Positions 40,576 to 49,564 of a DNA stretch of 64,000 nucleotides are shown one piece after another; position 1 is the stretch's first letter; each line of letters begins with the position of its first letter. Made by a program: the position numbers and the translations under genes. The stretch spans positions 3,008,001 through 3,072,000 of the forward strand of contig OY970173.1 in NCBI GenBank assembly GCA_963707635.1, given 5' to 3'. Under the pieces are notes generated by a model. That model had not been told where the DNA came from, searched no databases, and saw nothing but the letters and a program-made list of their open reading frames with translations. This DNA is from Candidatus Latescibacterota bacterium. GTDB lineage: Bacteria > Krumholzibacteriota > Krumholzibacteriia > WVZY01 > JAKEHA01.

Positions 40576-42373
40576 ATGAACCCGCCATTTCACGACACCA
40601 TTCCCCGCCAGTTCCTGGCCTGCGTCCAGGGCTTCAACAAGCCGGACGCGTTCCGCCTCAAGCGGGACGGGCGCTACGTCGACGTGGCGCACGCGTGGAT
40701 GCTGGAACAGGTGCACGCCGTCGCGTGCGCGATCGGCGCGCTCGGCCTCGCCCGCGGGGACCGGGTCGCACTCCTGTCCGAGAATCGCATCGAGTGGGCG
40801 GTGGCCGACCTCGCCCTGCTCTCGGCGGGCTTCGTCAATGTTCCGGTCTACGCGACGCTCCCGCCGTCGCAGGTCGAGTACATCCTTCGGGATTCCGGCG
40901 CGCGAGCGCTCTTCGTGTCCTCGCGCGCCCAGCTCGCCAAGATCGGCGAGATCCGCGCGCGACTCCCCCGCCTGGAGCACGTGGTCGCATTCGACGCCGA
41001 CGCCGCCGGCGACGGCGTGATCGCGTTCGGCACCATGGTCGAAAGCGGGCGCGGGCTGGCAGCGCAATCCGACTACGCAGCCATGGTGGGAGAGATCCGC
41101 GCCGGCGACTGGGCGAGCGTCATCTACACCTCGGGCACCACCGGCGAGCCCAAGGGCGCGATTCTGACCCACGCCAACTTCATGGCCAACGTTCGGCAGT
41201 GCCTGGAGGTGTTCGAAATCGGCACGGCCGACACGTGCCTTTCGTTCCTGCCGTTGAGCCACGTCTTCGAGCGCACGGCGGGCTTCTACGTGATGATGAC
41301 CGCCGGCGTGACCATCGCGTATGCAGAGTCGATCGAGGCGGTGCCGCAAAACCTCGCCGAGGTGCGTCCCACGGTCGTGTGCTCGGTGCCGCGGGTCTAT
41401 GAAAAAATGTACGCGCGCATTCTCGACACGGTGGAACGCGGGCCGGCTCTCAAGAAGCGGTTGTTCCACTGGGCCGTGCACGCGGGACGGCAGTGGGTGG
41501 GCGAACACCTGCGCGGCCGCGTCGGCCCGGTCACCGCGGCACGCCGGCGCGTCGCCAACGCGCTGGTGCTCAAGAAGCTGCAGGCACGCGTCGGCGGCCG
41601 CCTGCGCTTCTTTGTCTCCGGGAGCGCCCCGCTCGCGCGCGACATCATCGAGTTCTTCTATGCGGCCGGCATCCCCATTCTCGAGGGCTACGGCCTCACC
41701 GAAACCTCGCCCGTGCTGACCGTGAATCACTTCGGCGCGTTCAAGTTCGGGACGGTGGGCCGGCCGCTCCCCGACGTGGAGATCCGGATCGCCCCCGACG
41801 GCGAGATCCTCGCCCGCGGCCCCAACGTCATGCAGGGATATCTCAACAAGCCCGAGCAGACGGCGGAAGCAATCGTCGACGGATGGTTTCACACCGGCGA
41901 CATCGGACACCTAGACGCCGACGGTTTCCTGGTCATCACGGACCGCAAGAAGGACCTGATCGCCACCGCGGGCGGCAAGAAGGTGGCGCCCGCAGCCGAT
42001 CGAAGGGAAGCTCAAGTCCAATCCATTGGTGACGGAAGCGATCCTGGTCGGCAATCGGCGGCCGTTTATCGCGCTGCTCCTGATCCCGAACTTCGACCGC
42101 CTCGACGCGTGGGCGCAGGCCGCGGGACTGGCAACCAGCGACCGCCCCGCGCTCCTGACCGCCCCCGCCGTGCGCGACCTCTACCAGCGCGTGGTCGACG
42201 GCGTGAATCAGGAGCTGGCGCAGTTCGAGCGCATCAAGTCGTTCGCGCTGCTCGGAAACGAGCTCTCCATCCACGACGGCGACCTCACGCCGACGCTAAA
42301 AGTGAGAAGGAAGATCGTGGAGGAGAAGTTCAAGGACGCGATCGACGCGATGTATCGCGCCCCCGCGCCGTAG
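40576..42373 (+). CDS. Long-chain fatty acid-CoA ligase, interrupted by one extra base near 41990
   Basis: YTSGTTGEPKG, LPLSH, EGYGLTE, FHTGD, ITDRKK. Removing one C at 41989-41991 restores KKVAPQPIEGKLK and joins the 42026..42373 ORF (LTPTLKVRR). Confidence 0.9.
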
Positions 42374-42386
42374 CACCGGCGCGCCG

Positions 42387-44007
42387 CTAGAAGCGCCAGC
42401 TGAGGCTGGTGTAGACCTGGTCGTAGCCCTCGTTGCGCTCCCCGGAAATATTCCCGTACATTCCCTGCCCGAGGTCGACGTCCACGTCGGCCCCGAACCA
42501 GGACGTGCGGCTTGTCCGACGCCGCCGACAGCTTCGACTCCTCGTGTCGCGTCCCGCCGAACAGGTCGAACATCCAGCGCGCCCCGAGCGCGAATCCGCC
42601 CGAAACCGAATGCATCCAGCCCAGCGTGCTCTGGTTGTCGTAGCGAGTCGACCGGGCCCGCAGCTGCACATGCGCCGGGGTCAAATGGATCGCCGAGGCC
42701 GTCAGGGTGTAGGAGGTGGCGTCGCCGGCGGAGCCGCCGCTGCTCGATCGCGCCGTCGCTCCCAGCCGATAGCGCTGCGCGAAGCCCACTCCGACGCCTC
42801 CCCAGACCCCCTGCCGGTAGGAATCGTCGAACTCGGTCTCCGGGCTCACGTAGTCACGATACAGGCGCGCGTCGCGGCGGTGGTCGTAGCCACCGTCGAG
42901 GTCGACGCCGTGCGCCAGCCGATAGCGCGCCGAGAGAAACGCGTTGGTCAGCGACGCGGCGGACTCGCCTTCGTTTCGCTTCCACCCGCGGTTGATGTCG
43001 ACTTCCTGCTGGAACATCACCGAGAGCCGGGGTGTTGCCACCCGGCTCAAGAACGCCACGTACTCGCGGTTGATCTTGCCCTGTTCGTACGAGCCGATCG
43101 CGGCCGTCACCAACTCCCAGCGGGTGTGTGCCTGGGGCGCCGACCACCACCTCACGAACGCGCCGTACTCGGTGATGTCGGTCGAGAAACTGTAGTCGAG
43201 TGGTGCGGGCTGCGTGCCGCCGAAGACCCCGACGCCGAAACGACGCGCGGTTGCTTCGAACTGGCCGCCGTCGAAGGTGCTGATGCTCGCGAGCGCGGAC
43301 GAGAACTGTCGCCCGAGCGTCATGCGATAGCGGTCGCGCGGCGAGCGCGCGGTCGCATTCAGCCGATAGACGCGCGCCTCGCCGCTGTCGACCTCGCGCC
43401 CGTCGCTCACCGTCTGCAAAGTCCGGCGCGCGCGCACGTCGACCTGGAGGTCGAGCGCAGACCCTCCGACCCGCGTGCCGTCGAGGCGCACGTCGAGCGA
43501 CGGCTGCGTGACGTCGCCGCCGAAGCCGCTGCGGTCCATGACCCCGAGGTAGCGCACCCCGATTCGCCCCCGCAACCCCATGCGCCGCGGCCACGACTCC
43601 GTCGCCTCGGGCGGGGGCGCTTCGGCGGGCATCGTGGACATCACCGCCGCGCGAGCGGTGTCCGCGGCCGCCGCGGAGCGTGGCGCCGCGGTGAATCGAA
43701 CCGTGTCTCCCACCACGCACGCCGCGGTCGAGGTTTCGATCGCGCACGCCGCCCGCCGCGTGGAGACGTCCGACACGCGCAGCGTCGCGATGACCTGACC
43801 CCCGCGCACCACCTCGATGAGCGCTCCCACGTCGAGGCCGTCCTCGCGGCCGGCGTCGATGTAGATGGTCGAACTGGTGAGATAGGTGACGCGGTAGGCG
43901 CGCGCGGCGGGCGGCGCGGCGGACGCCGGGGCAGCGATCATCGCCGCCACGATCCCGGCCCACGCCAGGGCCGTAAGCATCTTCATGTGCCGGCGCGCCA
44001 TTGTCAT
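42387..44007 (-). CDS. Outer-membrane beta-barrel protein associated with multiheme cytochromes, interrupted by one extra base near 42510
   Basis: Signal peptide, small N-terminal beta domain (IYIDAGREDGL..G), many amphipathic strands. After the frameshift it ends YDQVYTSLSWRF (C-terminal Phe beta-signal). Confidence 0.75.
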
Positions 44008-44009
44008 CG

Positions 44010-45311
44010 TCAATTGCCCCGGGGATGACAGTTGTAACAAGCCGACGACAGGTACGCGTAGCCGTTTTCGTTCCGATGGTGGCCGTCGGTCTCGGCCTGG
44101 TCGTCGTGCGGGTGGCACCCGAAGCACGAGAAGTCGGCGTAGCTCGCCGCGTTGGTGTGACAGGTGCTGCACGCGTTCCAGTTGCTGTGCCTCCCGCTCG
44201 CGATCGGGAAGAACGTCGAGTGGTCGAAGGTGGCGCCGCTCCACCGGGTCGTGTTGTGACACGCAAGGCAATCGGTGGTGAAGTTCGCCGCCGCGTGGTT
44301 CGGGTCGCTCGTCCCGTCGTAGTCGTTCTGGTGGCACGACACACACGCCCCCGAGAGTCCGGTGTAGGTGCCGCCGACGTGGCAGTCGGCGCACGGGAGC
44401 GGGACGTGGGCGCCGGTGAGGGCGAACCCCGTCGTCGCGTGATCGAAATGCGCGTCTCCCCACCGCGAGGTGTTGTGACACTGCTCACAGGTCGTCGGGA
44501 AGCCGGAGGCCGCATGGGTCGGGTCGCTAGTCCCGTCGTAGTCGCTCTGGTGGCACGACACGCACGCGCTCGAGAGCCCGGTGTAGGTGCCGCCGACGTG
44601 GCAGTCGGCGCACGGCAGCGTCGCGTGCGCTCCCGTCAGCGGGAACGCGGTGAGCGCGTGGTCGAAATGGGCGTGCGACCACGCCAGCTGGTCGTGGCAC
44701 AGCTGGCAGTCCTGGCTGAATCCGCCCGCCTCGTGGTCGGGCTGGACCGTCGCCTGGTAGTCGTCCATGTGGCACGACACGCACTCGGACGCCGTGTTGA
44801 CGTAGCTCAAGTCGCCCGGCGACGTGAGCCGGTGGCACATTTCGCAGTCCAGCGTCGTGTGCGCGCCCGCCAGTGGGAATCGGGTCAGGCGATGCAGCCG
44901 GATCTGATCGTTCCGGTCGACGAAACTGCGCGTGCCGTGGCAGCGCGAACAATCCGTGCCCAGCTCGCCGTTGTGAACGTCGGCGTGGCAGTCCACGCAC
45001 GCCGTCGAGACCCCGCCGAAGTCGAGACTCTTGTGACACTGCATGCAATCCACCGACGCGTGCGCCCCACCCAGCGGGAGGAACTTGTCGTGGTCGAACT
45101 TCTTGCTGATCCGGGCCGGCTTCCAGCCCGACGCCCGGTGGCAGAGCGAGCAATCCTCGCGGTAGTCGCCGTGGGGGTTGGCCACCTTCGGCGCCTGGTC
45201 GGCCGCGCGCGCCGCCGCCGGCCCCATCACCACCTGCCCGAGCAGGCTGGGCAGCAGCGCCGCCACGGTCATCGCGATACCGAGGGATATCAGGTCTCTT
45301 CGAGGTTGCAT
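44010..45311 (-). CDS. Exported 16-heme cytochrome c
   Basis: Signal peptide; 16 CXXCH motifs counted; repeated FDH..T.FPLxGAH modules. Confidence 0.92.
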   Translation of the reverse strand: MQPRRDLISLGIAMTVAALLPSLLGQVVMGPAAARAADQAPKVANPHGDYREDCSLCHRASGWKPARISKKFDHDKFLPLGGAHASVDCMQCHKSLDFGGVSTACVDCHADVHNGELGTDCSRCHGTRSFVDRNDQIRLHRLTRFPLAGAHTTLDCEMCHRLTSPGDLSYVNTASECVSCHMDDYQATVQPDHEAGGFSQDCQLCHDQLAWSHAHFDHALTAFPLTGAHATLPCADCHVGGTYTGLSSACVSCHQSDYDGTSDPTHAASGFPTTCEQCHNTSRWGDAHFDHATTGFALTGAHVPLPCADCHVGGTYTGLSGACVSCHQNDYDGTSDPNHAAANFTTDCLACHNTTRWSGATFDHSTFFPIASGRHSNWNACSTCHTNAASYADFSCFGCHPHDDQAETDGHHRNENGYAYLSSACYNCHPRGN

Positions 45312-45357
45312 GGTCGGTCACCTCTCCGGCGCGACGGACTTCCGCCCGTCGCGTCCA

Positions 45358-47133
45358 CTAATTCCTATTCTCCAGCATGCTTCCGTCCGCGTGGCAGCTC
45401 TCGCAGCGCGCCGAGATCGGCCGGTAGAGCGCCATGCGCTTCCCGCCTGCCGCCGTCACGATCGGATGACACTTCACGCACGGAACTCGAACGTGCTTGC
45501 CGTCCAGCTGGAAGCTCTTCACGCGCGCGTGATCGAAACGGCTCGCGGGAACGAACGCATCCATCCCGTGGCAGCTCTCGCACGCACCCTTGTCCTTGCG
45601 CCCGTCGAACTGGATTCCGTGCGGGCTCTCGTGGCAGCCCCGGCACGACCGGTCGTCGATGCGCATGAGCAACTTCACCGACGCCGCGCCTTTCGACGCG
45701 GACGCGCGCGCCGGTTCCGCCATGTCCGGGTGGCACGCGAAGCACGGCACCGCGCGGTGCGCCCCCTCCAGCGGGAAGCGGGTCCCGGCGTGCATGGCCG
45801 CGTCCACGAGCGACGGCCGGAACGCGTCCATCGAGTGACAGGCGCGGCAGTCGTCCTTGCGCGCCCGCTCCCCACCGGGCGCGAAGCGCCCCTCGTGCGG
45901 GTCGCGGTGGCACTCGACGCAGCGCCCGCTCGTGGGGTGCAGCCAGACCCCAGCGGTGCCAAGCGCCGCCGCGACCTGCGCCGGTGTCCCCGCGGGCTTG
46001 CGCCCGTGACAGTCCCGGCACGCGACCCGGGCGTGCGCTCCGTCCAGCGGGTATTTCGTCGCCGCGTGTTGCGCGACCGTGAACGTGGCGGGCTTGAACG
46101 CGTCCACGCGGTGACACGCGGCGCAGTCAGGCGCCTTGCCGGCGACCACCGTCTGCCCGGCGTGCGCGTCCTGGTGGCATCCCGCGCACGTGGTAAACGG
46201 CGGTTTCTTGCCCCATGCGGTCTTCTCGTCGTGGCAGGCCGCGCACTTCACCGTCGCGTGCGCCCCGCGCAGCGGATAGCGCGTGCGGTCGTGGTCGAAG
46301 CGTTCGCCCGCGATCAGCTTGAACCCTCCGGTGACGTGACAGCTGCTGCACGTGACGCCGAACGAGCCCCGGTGGGGATCCGCATGACAGACTCCGCACT
46401 CGTCGTGCGGCAGCGGCTTGTAGAGCGGGATCACGCGTCCCTTCTCGTCCCTGGCGAGCTGGAGGCGCGCCGCCTCGTGGCAGGCCGCGCACGCCACCGT
46501 CGCGTGCTTTCCGGTCAGCGCGAACGCCGTCCTGGCATGGTCGAACCCGCGCGCGGGTTTCCACCCCTGCTCGTCGTGGCAGCGGGTGCAATCGCTTCCC
46601 AGCGAACCGCGGTGGACGTCCTCGTGACACCCGCGGCAGTCCGTGCCCAGGCCCACCCAGGGGATTTCCCGATTCTTATTCTTGACCAGTGACTGCATCT
46701 CTTTGCTCACATGCACCGACGCATGACATTTCCGGCATTCGATGGCGGCGTGTTTGCCGGCAAGCGGCCAGCCCGCGCGCGCGTGATCGAATTTCTCGGG
46801 CGACTTGTCCGGCCAGGCCACCATCGCGAAATCCCGGCCCCCGTGGTCGGGATGGCAGCGCGCGCAATCCTTTCTTCCCTCGCGCCCGTGAAAACCCTTC
46901 TGCTTCGACACCAGCGAGGCGATCTCCTCATGGCACGCCAGGCATTTCCGGTCCATCTCGCCCGCGCCCTTGCCGTGGCACTTGACGCACCCTAGATTTC
47001 CGTCGAGCGCGGCGTGCGCCTTCGCCAGCGGACCCGGCGACACCTGCGCGCGCGCGTTCGTCATGCCGCCGGCCGCTAGCGCGATCGTGATCGTCACCGC
47101 GATCGCCCGCACGCGCGCCGGCGCGCTAGCCAA
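45358..47133 (-). CDS. Exported 20-heme cytochrome c
   Basis: Signal peptide then SPGPL..AH; 20 CXXCH motifs counted; repeated FDH...(F/Y/W)PLxG(K/A)H modules. Confidence 0.92.
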   Translation of the reverse strand: MASAPARVRAIAVTITIALAAGGMTNARAQVSPGPLAKAHAALDGNLGCVKCHGKGAGEMDRKCLACHEEIASLVSKQKGFHGREGRKDCARCHPDHGGRDFAMVAWPDKSPEKFDHARAGWPLAGKHAAIECRKCHASVHVSKEMQSLVKNKNREIPWVGLGTDCRGCHEDVHRGSLGSDCTRCHDEQGWKPARGFDHARTAFALTGKHATVACAACHEAARLQLARDEKGRVIPLYKPLPHDECGVCHADPHRGSFGVTCSSCHVTGGFKLIAGERFDHDRTRYPLRGAHATVKCAACHDEKTAWGKKPPFTTCAGCHQDAHAGQTVVAGKAPDCAACHRVDAFKPATFTVAQHAATKYPLDGAHARVACRDCHGRKPAGTPAQVAAALGTAGVWLHPTSGRCVECHRDPHEGRFAPGGERARKDDCRACHSMDAFRPSLVDAAMHAGTRFPLEGAHRAVPCFACHPDMAEPARASASKGAASVKLLMRIDDRSCRGCHESPHGIQFDGRKDKGACESCHGMDAFVPASRFDHARVKSFQLDGKHVRVPCVKCHPIVTAAGGKRMALYRPISARCESCHADGSMLENRN

Positions 47134-48553
47134 CGGCCGATGCCTCCTGCGGGAGCGGCACGTCCTTCTTCACAATCCGGATGCCGATTCCCTCCAGGAA
47201 CTTGAACGGCGGATCGCCGCCGATGCGCACCACCACCACGTCGTTGGGGAGCACCTCCTCCCGCCCCTCCACGTCCAGCACGACGCTCCCCTCTCGAATC
47301 GACCGCACCTGGCTGTTCAGCGCCACGCGCAGCGTCCCGCACCTAACCGCCTCGTTGAGATTCGTGCGGTTGCGGTCTTTCACGCGCCCGAACTCCGCGC
47401 CCCGATAGCTCAGCGTGACCGTGGTCCCACGCTGCCGCGCGAGGCCGACGGCCGATTCCACCGCGCTGTCACCGCCCCCCACCACCAAGAGACGCATGCC
47501 GGCGAACGATTCCATGTCCGCAACGTCGTAGATCACCTTGCCCAGCTCCTCGCCCTCCACGCCCAGGCGGCGCGGGCTTCCGCGCCGGCCCATGGCCAGC
47601 ACGACGCGCCGGCCGCGGAAGACGCCCTCCGAGGTCTCGACCAGCAGCAGCTGGCCGCGACGTTCGATGTTGGACACGCGGTGCTGGGTCTTCACCTCGA
47701 GCCCGGTCTTCGCGATGATTCGCTCCCACGCCTGCAGGAGATGTTCCTTCGACGAGTCCGACACCCAGAGGTTGCCGTACAGCGGAACCCGCACCGGTTC
47801 CGCGAGCAGGAACTTCGCGCGCGGGTACTTGCGGATGGTGTCTGCGAGAGAGCCCTGCTCGAGCACGAGATAGCGCAGCCCGCAGCGCAACGCCTCGAGG
47901 CCCGCGCTCAACCCGGCCGGGCCGCTGCCCACGATGATCACGTCGTACGCGTCCCGGTCGCCGTCGCCCCGCGGCTCGCCGGGGGGCAGGTCGTGCGCCA
48001 CGTGCTCGATCGCCACCTTGGCCTCGTTGATCGCGTTCTTGATGAGACCGCGTCCGCCGAGCTCGCCGACGATGTACACACCGCGCAGATTGCTCTCGAA
48101 GTCCGAGTCGAGGTCCGGCACTTCGACCCGGTGTACGGCGGAGCCGGTCGCGAGGACGATCCCGCCGACCGGGCACGCTTCGACGCACTTGCCGTGTCCG
48201 GTGCAGAGCGCCGTGTTGACGGTCGCGAGTTTTCCGACCATCTGGATGGCCCCGGTTTCGGGGCAGACTGGAACGCACGCTCCGCACCCGACGCACTGAT
48301 CCGCGCGCACCACCGCGTGCGGCTTGCCGCCGGCGCTGCCGCTGTCCGCGCCCTCGACCACGGTCGGGGCGCTCACGACTTCGTAGAGCTGCATCGGCAC
48401 GTCGCAGCGCGGGCAACGCGCCGCTCCCGGCGGCACGGCCGCATGGCAGCGCGGACAGGCAGTCGCCTTTTCGGTGGTGGTCTGGCTCATGTGACGATAG
48501 ACGAAATAGCCCGTCAGCACGATCAATCCAAGCGTGGTGAGCAGCATCGTCAT
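47126..48553 (-). CDS. Membrane-anchored FAD/NAD(P)H oxidoreductase (TrxB/YpdA-like) with zinc ribbon and 2x[4Fe-4S] domain
   Basis: N-terminal TM helix; CPRC..CPRC; CVGCGACVPVCP and CTGHGKCVEACP; IVGSGPAG; VVGGGDSA. Confidence 0.88.
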   Translation of the reverse strand: MTMLLTTLGLIVLTGYFVYRHMSQTTTEKATACPRCHAAVPPGAARCPRCDVPMQLYEVVSAPTVVEGADSGSAGGKPHAVVRADQCVGCGACVPVCPETGAIQMVGKLATVNTALCTGHGKCVEACPVGGIVLATGSAVHRVEVPDLDSDFESNLRGVYIVGELGGRGLIKNAINEAKVAIEHVAHDLPPGEPRGDGDRDAYDVIIVGSGPAGLSAGLEALRCGLRYLVLEQGSLADTIRKYPRAKFLLAEPVRVPLYGNLWVSDSSKEHLLQAWERIIAKTGLEVKTQHRVSNIERRGQLLLVETSEGVFRGRRVVLAMGRRGSPRRLGVEGEELGKVIYDVADMESFAGMRLLVVGGGDSAVESAVGLARQRGTTVTLSYRGAEFGRVKDRNRTNLNEAVRCGTLRVALNSQVRSIREGSVVLDVEGREEVLPNDVVVVRIGGDPPFKFLEGIGIRIVKKDVPLPQEASAVG

Positions 48554-48563
48554 GACAGCTCCA

Positions 48564-49475
48564 CTAGAACCACGTCGCGCCGACGGTGACGACGACCACG
48601 ACGTGGATCGTGACCGCGATGAAGGCGGTGATCGCCACCGGCCGGTGGGCAGCGTGCCAGTGACGGAAGATCGAGTGGGTGGCGTTCAGGAGGCGCGTCT
48701 GCTGGTTCAGCGCCATTTCCCGGCGCGCGAGCGCCATGATCGCCCGCACGTGCTTTGCGTCGACGGTCCGCCCCGCGGCGAGCCGCGCGCGCAGCCGGCG
48801 TGCCGCCCGCGCACGCGCGATGTCGTCGCGAACCATCAACACGAACGCGCGCCCGATTCCCACGTTCGGAGGAACGGATTCCACGTTGAGAATCTCCTGC
48901 ACGTCGAGAACCGACAACCCGGACGCGTCCGCGATCTCGCCCAGCAGCGCGCGCTGGTGCGCGGCCACTTCGCCCAGCCCGAGCTCGACGCCGCCGCGGC
49001 TGCGCGGAATACGCACGTAGAGGTATCGTCCGACCACGCCGCTCGCGCACACGATGAGCATCGCGAAGTAGCCGAGACCGATCACGCCGCCGAAACGGAA
49101 GCTCGCGTGGATGGCGCCGACGAGTGGAAGCACCAGCCCCACACCGATGTGCACGTTGAGCCACCGCGGCACCGGGCCGACCCACTCGGGGGCGCGCCGG
49201 AGCTTCTTGCGCAGCGGAAAGAGCCACATGAAGAGAAACCCGAGAAACGTTACGACCCCGGCGGCCTGGCCGATGTATCCGGAGGGCCTAAACCAGGGAT
49301 GCAGGGCGTGGCGAAGCTGCTCCCCGCGCGGGAGGACATAGTAGGGTGCTCCGATGGCGGCAACGATCAGCAGGAGGACAACGGGAACAAGCACCATCCG
49401 GCCCGGGCTCGCGGTGCGCGAACTCGCAGCGGGTTTGGCGGTTACGGGCTTGGGCTTGGTCGCTGTCTGGGGCAC
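48564..49475 (-). CDS. Polytopic membrane protein with conserved His residues (cytochrome b / ferric-reductase-like)
   Basis: About 5-6 hydrophobic segments; WLNVHI..G, GAIHASF, SGVVGRYLY, WHAAHRP, TIHV. Confidence 0.75.
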   Translation of the reverse strand: MPQTATKPKPVTAKPAASSRTASPGRMVLVPVVLLLIVAAIGAPYYVLPRGEQLRHALHPWFRPSGYIGQAAGVVTFLGFLFMWLFPLRKKLRRAPEWVGPVPRWLNVHIGVGLVLPLVGAIHASFRFGGVIGLGYFAMLIVCASGVVGRYLYVRIPRSRGGVELGLGEVAAHQRALLGEIADASGLSVLDVQEILNVESVPPNVGIGRAFVLMVRDDIARARAARRLRARLAAGRTVDAKHVRAIMALARREMALNQQTRLLNATHSIFRHWHAAHRPVAITAFIAVTIHVVVVVTVGATWF

Positions 49476-49549
49476 GCTCGAACCAACCTGGGTGCGGCCG
49501 GGTTAGAAGAATCCCCAGCAACTACTGGGACAAACCACACCAGGGGAAG

Positions 49550-49564
49550 GCAACGCAAGTGCCA
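49550..49564 (-). promoter_or_regulatory. Sigma-54 promoter of the multiheme cytochrome operon
   Basis: Minus strand TGGCAC-TTGCG-TTGC is an exact TGGCAC-N5-TTGC consensus, 75 nt upstream of the first gene. Confidence 0.75.

Follow-up and report, generated by a model that had tools for sequence, protein, structure and literature searches.

In the 64,000-nt stretch of contig OY970173.1 from a Candidatus Latescibacterota bacterium (the window, whose numbering is used for all positions below), five genes spanning 42387..49564 encode an inner-membrane protein, an Fe-S flavoprotein, two multiheme c-type cytochromes and a predicted outer-membrane β-barrel. The four genes other than that of the flavoprotein match the PCC3 type of porin-cytochrome conduit, a match of order, size, heme ratio and motifs and not of alignment to the type sequences; this four-gene architecture has already been described, and what appears to be new here is the link of a flavoprotein to a PCC3-type core. 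The reading that we favour, and to which we give an even chance of being right, is that the five products would move electrons outward from NADPH in the cytoplasm to the cell exterior, by way of the flavoprotein, b hemes, the cytochromes and the barrel. All five genes are co-oriented on the minus strand and follow one another with intergenic gaps of 10, -8, 46 and 2 nt, in agreement with an earlier note on this DNA, which had described tightly spaced genes behind an exact sigma-54 consensus; the features are as follows.

49550..49564, minus strand: sigma-54 -24/-12 promoter-like site, exact consensus TGGCAC-N5-TTGC, 89 nt upstream of the first start
48564..49475, minus strand: inner-membrane protein of 303 aa with five transmembrane helices, predicted di-heme b (invariant His, hydropathy, charge, model)
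47126..48553, minus strand: membrane-anchored Fe-S flavoprotein of 475 aa (Pfam, NCBIfam, YpdA structure match, motif counts)
45358..47133, minus strand: 20-heme cytochrome c of 591 aa, N terminus judged by eye to be signal-peptide-like (CXXCH count)
44010..45311, minus strand: 16-heme cytochrome c of 433 aa, Thr/Ser-rich, with 73-residue tri-heme repeats (CXXCH count, repeats)
42387..44007, minus strand: predicted outer-membrane β-barrel of about 535 aa, frameshifted near 42511 (model of an intact relative, locus L041; fold search)

Linkage of the flavoprotein gene to the conduit genes

The persistence of the flavoprotein gene beside the conduit genes was followed in 116 loci: 29 of them come from related genomes, 80 are the best among 572 matches in metagenomes, five lie on viral contigs, and an Acidobacteriota contig and a plasmid supply one each; linkage was counted in the 46 loci in which the membrane protein and the barrel both fall within the stretch, the other 70, with the barrel outside it, being left out. 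The flavoprotein is present in 45 of these 46, a figure (based, for the metagenomes, on the best 80 of 572 matches) that overstates independence, since the loci were found through a one-phylum profile and include near duplicates and kin. The weight of the evidence rests, rather than on this count, on the rearrangements: the flavoprotein gene lies between the membrane-protein gene and the cytochromes in 23 loci, after the barrel in 11, upstream on the same strand in six and upstream in divergent orientation in five. The synteny on which the earlier note had staked its proposal is found, therefore, across genomes, as a linkage that persists in four arrangements, as well as in Emticicia oligotrophica DSM 17448, whose plasmid pEMTOL02 carries ccsA and then all five genes in the same order (EMTOL_RS21090-21110), with 23 and 40 hemes in the cytochromes; this cultured carrier was isolated from spring water and is presumably an aerobe. 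At the exceptional locus (L060, 1890-9152), the membrane-protein gene is divergent from those of a 36-heme cytochrome and a barrel, which are followed by a gene for a cNMP/4Fe-4S protein that has no flavin domain.

Of 61 related genomes, 28 have the genes of both the membrane protein and the flavoprotein (the latter being split in one of them), 29 have neither and four have one only; two of these four (G029 and G030, both fragmented) have the flavoprotein gene without the membrane gene. The flavoprotein gene of G060 (L044:10544-12004) is spread over three frames, with the second cytochrome and the barrel not adjacent, and is possibly decaying or mis-assembled. Of 128 genomes that represent the phylum, 55 have the membrane gene (one of them as a contig-end fragment); its homologues at 68-74% identity are labelled Candidatus Krumholzibacteria, and named ones come also from Gemmatimonadota, Eisenbacteria and Acidobacteriota.

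Plasmid three-gene modules carry distant homologues of the membrane protein, in L063 (HHalign 97.9%) beside an unrelated FNR/2Fe-2S flavoprotein, with zwf/gnd preceding, and in L068 (HHalign 98.8%) beside a Pyr_redox/cNMP/Fer4 protein, so that members of this membrane family are repeatedly found next to a cytoplasmic NAD(P)H enzyme, whose fold differs between the two cases. The modules fit size classes in Table S6 of PMC5566968, a paper that catalogued such partners as "other redox protein" and whose own model is quinone-linked. A cluster with 61 and 20 hemes (PMC13013709, Lentimicrobium) may be a further case of the family. NAD(P) transhydrogenase genes lie directly upstream of the operon in four same-genus loci (L034, L035, L037 and L038) and about 4 kb beyond the barrel in two; this adjacency and the zwf/gnd genes ahead of the L063 module are a weak hint in favour of the NADPH-fed reading.

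The exact sigma-54 consensus described by the earlier note was confirmed, and a similar site is found 70-125 nt upstream in eight of ten same-genus loci, as against 65 of 1652 background windows (3.9%), the site in the other two deviating solely at the last base. Exact sites number 20 in the 3.2-Mb genome, compared with 6.9 expected from base composition; RpoN is encoded in the genome, as are the Ccm genes for cytochrome c maturation, while neither a sigma-70 site nor a terminator excess was found.

Homologues of the membrane protein also occur in the viral collection: short ones (149-162 aa) on four contigs with phage-like genes (L149, L150, L152 and L153) and a longer one, close to those of betaproteobacteria, on L151. 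On L153, a 326-kb IMG/VR contig, the homologue is followed by a 729-aa TPR/barrel-like gene and by 4- and 7-heme cytochromes (L153:9932-14043), a PCC3-like cassette in what is probably a jumbo phage.

Properties of the five proteins

The 303-aa membrane protein has five hydrophobic segments with positively charged loops on the presumed cytoplasmic side (hydropathy and charge) and, according to hydropathy and a structure model (pLDDT 84), a helical insertion of about 120 residues, also on that side, between helices 4 and 5. All 27 aligned sequences have His109/His123 and His277/His291 without exception, and 105 of 106 near-complete homologues have two W-x3-H-x13-H motifs as well as SGxxG. Scans of Pfam and NCBIfam gave no family match for the protein of this genome; 15 of the 27 relatives match Pfam Ferric_reduct weakly (E up to 1; best 1.3e-4). 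No clear fold emerged from Foldseek, a second look included; the compact folds that the model matches are those of di-heme b proteins, NOX5 (Z 6.9) among them, all with a middling Z (6.7-7.9) that ranks lower than the unrelated long-helix matches. The protein is likely to be ferric-reductase-like and is predicted to carry two b hemes; the four invariant His, being of ferric-reductase type, support the cytochrome-b-like protein that the earlier note had seen here.

The flavoprotein is composed of an N-terminal anchor, a zinc ribbon, a two-cluster ferredoxin and then a FAD/NADPH domain of the YpdA/TrxR type. Residues 204-461 match the YpdA structure (PDB 7a7b, 7a76; about 260 residues aligned, E 4e-29), and residues 146-187 match, at E 2e-11, a segment (303-342) that follows the same domain in the Sphingobium homologue of L068, so that the fold is circularly permuted; the permuted segment alone, searched against PDB, found no match. 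Membership of the YpdA/Bdr family was rejected, as the score of 162.5 is below the curated TIGR04018 cut-off of 339.9 and the domain order is permuted. In the second Fe-S motif (C-x-G-H-x-x-C-x3-C), His replaces the second Cys in 74 of 74 homologues; in the first, the second Cys is kept in 53 of the 74. The two [4Fe-4S] clusters of the earlier note thus stand as a two-cluster ferredoxin, predicted to bind both, but not with standard ligation, the invariant His of the second motif being a non-standard ligand. The conserved Cys are cluster ligands only. The GGGxSA and Tyr-Arg motifs, which we take to be NADPH-type signatures, are found in 66 of the 74 homologues (seven are off-pattern and one has Thr), and a preference for NADPH is accordingly predicted.

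The anchor has more positive residues behind it than before it (N-out/C-in) in 22 of 22 aligned flavoproteins, none of which was found to carry a Tat motif; the flavoprotein is therefore placed in the cytoplasm, and a periplasmic location was rejected. Prediction of a complex between membrane protein and flavoprotein scored 0.02, against a mark of 0.32, which counts neither for nor against contact between the two. The zinc ribbon (CxxC-x11-CxxC, residues 33-50) is confined to closer relatives and holds a chance CXXCH, at which heme binding is unlikely, the site being cytoplasmic. A 748-aa paralogue of the permuted domain is encoded elsewhere in the genome (L159, G000:C1:3167754-3170000) without an adjacent membrane-protein partner; many relatives have genes like it, as does a glycosyltransferase cluster of Pseudoalteromonas.

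The two cytochromes contain 20 and 16 CXXCH motifs, so that the 36 counted by the earlier note in two exported proteins were borne out, with 23 and 21 further His, respectively, usable as distal ligands. The FDH..FPLxGxH tri-heme module to which that note drew attention is present, even if strict matches are few (three in the 20-heme and two in the 16-heme protein) and become six and four only when the pattern is relaxed. Of 43 core loci, 41 have a homologue of the first cytochrome with 17, 20 or 23 hemes; homologues of the second have from 10 to more than 40; a sequence search for a solved relative of either found none. The net charge is +24 for the 20-heme cytochrome and -21 for the 16-heme one; Thr+Ser+Ala+Gly, in which the second cytochrome of PCC3 is described as rich, make up 36% of the second and 33% of the first, and Thr+Ser 16% and 9%. 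The 20-heme cytochrome is likely to be periplasmic and the 16-heme one outward-facing, as far as such features indicate.

The reading frame of the barrel is split over two frames near 42511, an intact relative aligning over residues 27-491 in one and over 496-536 in the other. Near-strain contigs in runs X1 and X2 (one study) are without the extra base at 42511, and those in X1 and X3 are without one base at 41988, where the neighbouring AMP-binding (acyl-CoA ligase-like) gene, at 40576-42373 of the window, is also frameshifted. The frameshift in the barrel gene is probably an assembly error; a true pseudogene, possible for this strain as a strain-specific break, was rejected as the likelier cause because near strains do not have the extra base. 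Intact barrels are seen in relatives and end with the same Phe-ending β-signal; the signal claimed by the earlier note is thus real, but it lies in the second frame and not in a continuous one. The barrel of the relative L041 (58% identical) is modelled, at pLDDT 90, with 22 strands behind a small N-terminal β domain and a flexible linker, which upholds the β-barrel identity given to the 42.4-44.0 kb product; the model also resembles usher barrels in the fold search. Several TonB-type alignments begin at residue 35-41 of the model, a hint that the model places the small domain in the lumen; weak FlgT_C matches to this domain, all below cut-off, were found in 6 of 17 proteins.

The proposed route and its alternatives

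In the NADPH-fed route, the anchored flavoprotein would take electrons from NADPH in the cytoplasm and hand them on, by way of FAD, to its two Fe-S clusters, of which the His-ligated one is the probable exit site; from there they would reach, by contact between the two proteins, the two predicted b hemes of the membrane protein, then the 20-heme cytochrome, the 16-heme cytochrome at or through the barrel, and finally an acceptor outside. The whole would amount to a split module, resembling an NADPH oxidase or ferric reductase, joined to a wire of the PCC3 type. MsrQ, which belongs to the same superfamily as the membrane protein, offers a parallel in that it takes electrons from a separate cytosolic NADH oxidoreductase (PMC12525009). 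The membrane potential helps electrons to cross a membrane from its negative side to its positive one, and the midpoint potentials of NADPH and menaquinol are about -320 mV and -74 mV; outward flow would therefore be favoured, and hemes of a potential much too low for menaquinol could be reduced by NADPH. Since such a path would spend, and not make, proton-motive force, its role would be that of a redox valve, or of a reductase acting at low potential on iron oxides, humics or partner cells, rather than that of a main respiratory chain. A distinct role is made plausible by a separate cluster of the same genome (L158, G000:C1:2448391-2462570), which looks like a conventional quinol-linked route. 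It encodes a Rieske protein, a cytochrome b, a 9-heme cytochrome, a DmsE-like decaheme cytochrome, a probable barrel and a 6-heme cytochrome, together with a 13-heme cytochrome fused to cytochrome b, a 19-heme cytochrome and an NrfH-like protein, all below family cut-offs; two sigma-54 sites precede the two genes just upstream.

To our knowledge, the characterised porin-cytochrome conduits of Gram-negative bacteria are all fed from the quinone pool. A conduit fed by NADPH would be a different exit route for electrons, one that reaches lower potentials and belongs to lineages that are not known to be electroactive. A concrete and testable input is thereby proposed for PCC3, and a cultured host, E. 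oligotrophica, can be named that has all five genes on one plasmid. The fuller form of the proposal, a self-contained and quinone-free exporter in which a split NADPH-oxidase-like module hands electrons over at a His-ligated cluster, driven by NADPH and the membrane potential, is advanced tentatively, at somewhat less than even confidence; if it holds, members of the Krumholzibacteriota, Bacteroidota, Gemmatimonadota and Acidobacteriota could reduce acceptors too low for quinol-fed systems, and the way in which PCC3 is fed would be redefined. The NAD(P)H-to-surface conduit put forward by the earlier note is supported in part: the conserved linkage, the ferric-reductase-type His, the cytoplasm-facing flavoprotein of NADPH type and the predicted 22-strand barrel all speak for it, while its core turns out to have been described already, as PCC3.

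Besides the interdependence of the loci mentioned above, several observations weigh against such a route. Two genomes (G023 and G025) have the membrane gene without a full-length flavoprotein; the transhydrogenase genes of this genome lie about 270 kb from the operon; YpdA, the closest characterised flavoprotein, described as a disulfide reductase with limited activity towards flavodoxins, needs no catalytic cysteine (10.1101/2020.12.02.408641), and so missing cysteines do not exclude a thiol role for the flavoprotein; TonB-dependent barrels fit the barrel model best (Z 16.4 and 15.4, with MtrB at 12.5), and the N-terminal domain of the model might plug the barrel. Moreover, quinone-reactive di-heme b folds match the membrane model, namely superoxide oxidase (Z 7.9, rmsd 3.3, 134 aligned) and the formate dehydrogenase N subunit (Z 6.7); MsrQ, for its part, also binds ubiquinone (PMC12525009); and the PCC3 genes Slit_1446-1449 of Sideroxydans ES-1 are flanked, in the available part of PMC12016527, by those of an HD phosphohydrolase and an aldolase, with no flavoprotein, so that a PCC3 core need not have one adjacent.

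The last three points, together with the PCC3 model in PMC5566968, argue for the quinone-linked conduit of He et al., in which the membrane protein would pass electrons to or from the quinone pool and the flavoprotein would be a co-regulated NAD(P)H:quinone or ferredoxin reductase, contact between the two being unneeded. We hold this unlikely, given that 45 of 46 loci retain the linked flavoprotein across its four arrangements, that the membrane family is repeatedly paired with different cytoplasmic flavoproteins and that the genome already has a quinol-type cluster. An input from NADPH would be retained, and the respiratory function lost, if the module served some other task in the envelope, such as reductive mobilisation of iron or other metals, detoxification or repair, the barrel being a pore by which the variable-length cytochrome is secreted or anchored, and not an insulating sheath. 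The ferric reductase superfamily is described as doing such jobs, one homologue is annotated "iron reductase", outward flow would conserve no energy, the barrel resembles TonB-dependent and usher barrels, and the cultured carrier is a presumed aerobe from spring water; we nevertheless think it rather improbable, since no iron-uptake gene recurs among the commonest flanking families of 59 loci (seven representatives scanned) and 36 hemes would be a large investment for assimilation.

Still more doubtful is an inward path, in which an extracellular donor (Fe(II) minerals, reduced humics or partner cells) would reduce NADP+ or ferredoxin. Such a path would run counter to the membrane potential, and NADP+ could be reached only from a donor of less than about -450 mV. 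Heme wires are described as reversible, PCC3 as common in iron oxidisers, and its membrane gene as rising with iron oxidation in Sideroxydans CL21; the type cluster of an iron oxidiser, on the other hand, has no adjacent flavoprotein in the available description. Finally, it is very improbable that the flavoprotein acts as a YpdA-like reductase of low-molecular-weight disulfides, or as a redox sensor, and merely travels with a cytochrome operon: YpdA is its best family and structure match, does without a catalytic cysteine, and related partners carry cNMP-binding domains, but the TIGR04018 score is low (162 against 340), the linkage to the operon is tight, and the fused ferredoxin with its invariant His, the membrane anchor and the permuted order are all absent from the YpdA match.

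Comparison with known systems

The NADPH-fed route preferred here resembles MtrCAB and MtoAB in the use of a barrel and multiheme cytochromes across the outer membrane, and differs from them in the smaller barrel, in the heme repeat and in an input that is not CymA-like. Membership of the MtrAB/MtoAB/PioAB group was rejected, as the cytochromes score 41.8 and 23.9 with TIGR03508 (DmsE; cut-off 192.2) and the barrel 15 with PF11854 (MtrB; cut-off 23); the cytochromes are indeed unlike MtrA, as the earlier note had it, with regard to both the DmsE-family cut-off and the heme repeat. With YpdA/Bdr and the TrxR-like FNR enzymes, the flavoprotein shares FAD and NADPH domains that align (PDB 7a7b, 7a76), from which it departs by being circularly permuted, membrane-anchored, fused to a ferredoxin and below the family cut-off. 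The membrane protein has the four heme His on helices 3 and 5, as in the two-heme pattern of the ferric reductase superfamily (PMC3591440); in contrast to NOX/FRE enzymes, the dehydrogenase is a separate protein of TrxR/YpdA fold with Fe-S clusters, and not a fused FNR domain, and the acceptor would be a long cytochrome.

Closer relatives are to be found among the clusters catalogued in PMC5566968. Those of Table S6, with "cytochrome + membrane protein + other redox protein" and no porin, have the same membrane motifs and are mostly without a barrel. PCC4 (section 16 of the same paper) already joins a barrel, a membrane protein with the same motifs and redox genes; its three periplasmic cytochromes are small, with 4, 5 and 10 hemes, and there is no long second one; the operon, having cytochromes of 20 and 16 hemes, is not a PCC4. 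In both PCC3 and PCC4 the membrane motifs W-x3-H-x13-H and SGxxG were related to the ferric reductase domain.

PCC3 itself was described (He et al. 2017, PMC5566968) as four genes, for an inner-membrane protein, a periplasmic cytochrome, an extracellular cytochrome and a porin, with a second copy in ES-1 (Slit_0867-0870). The order is the same here (membrane protein, periplasmic cytochrome, variable second cytochrome, barrel), with the flavoprotein inserted after the first gene; the four core genes agree in size and heme ratio, the membrane protein having about 300 aa and five helices in PCC3 and 303 aa here, helices 3 and 5 carrying the two W-x3-H-x13-H motifs and helix 4 the SGxxG; the cytochromes have heme repeats and 22-39 residues per heme (29.6 in the 20-heme and 27.1 in the 16-heme protein); and the outer-membrane barrel is large in both, with 22 strands in the L041 model and 22 regions given for Leptothrix cholodnii. 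The membrane profile and motifs are matched by 120 of 120 mostly unnamed full-length homologues, including one of Leptothrix discophora (E 2e-34), all single proteins without gene context; the type PCC3 sequences were not found among these 120 betaproteobacterial-type homologues. No description of the five-gene form was found in the literature searched, which consisted mostly of open papers and, for PMC5566968, did not cover the figures and three tables; nor does the system appear in the available part of the Krumholzibacteria paper (10.1101/2020.09.22.307553). Published accounts, so far as their accessible text goes, keep to the four-gene description of PCC3, whose function is still untested (PMC5566968, PMC10734462, 10.1101/2025.02.27.639646, PMC11429942, PMC13386937 and PMC8788666). 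As to whether the operon matches a complex already characterised, which the earlier note had left open, its core is therefore the described, though untested, PCC3; what sets it apart are hosts outside the Proteobacteria, a barrel with an N-terminal β domain, an input that would come from NADPH where PCC3 was modelled as quinone-linked (PMC5566968) and, above all, the added Fe-S flavoprotein of NADPH type, which lies outside PCC3 as described.

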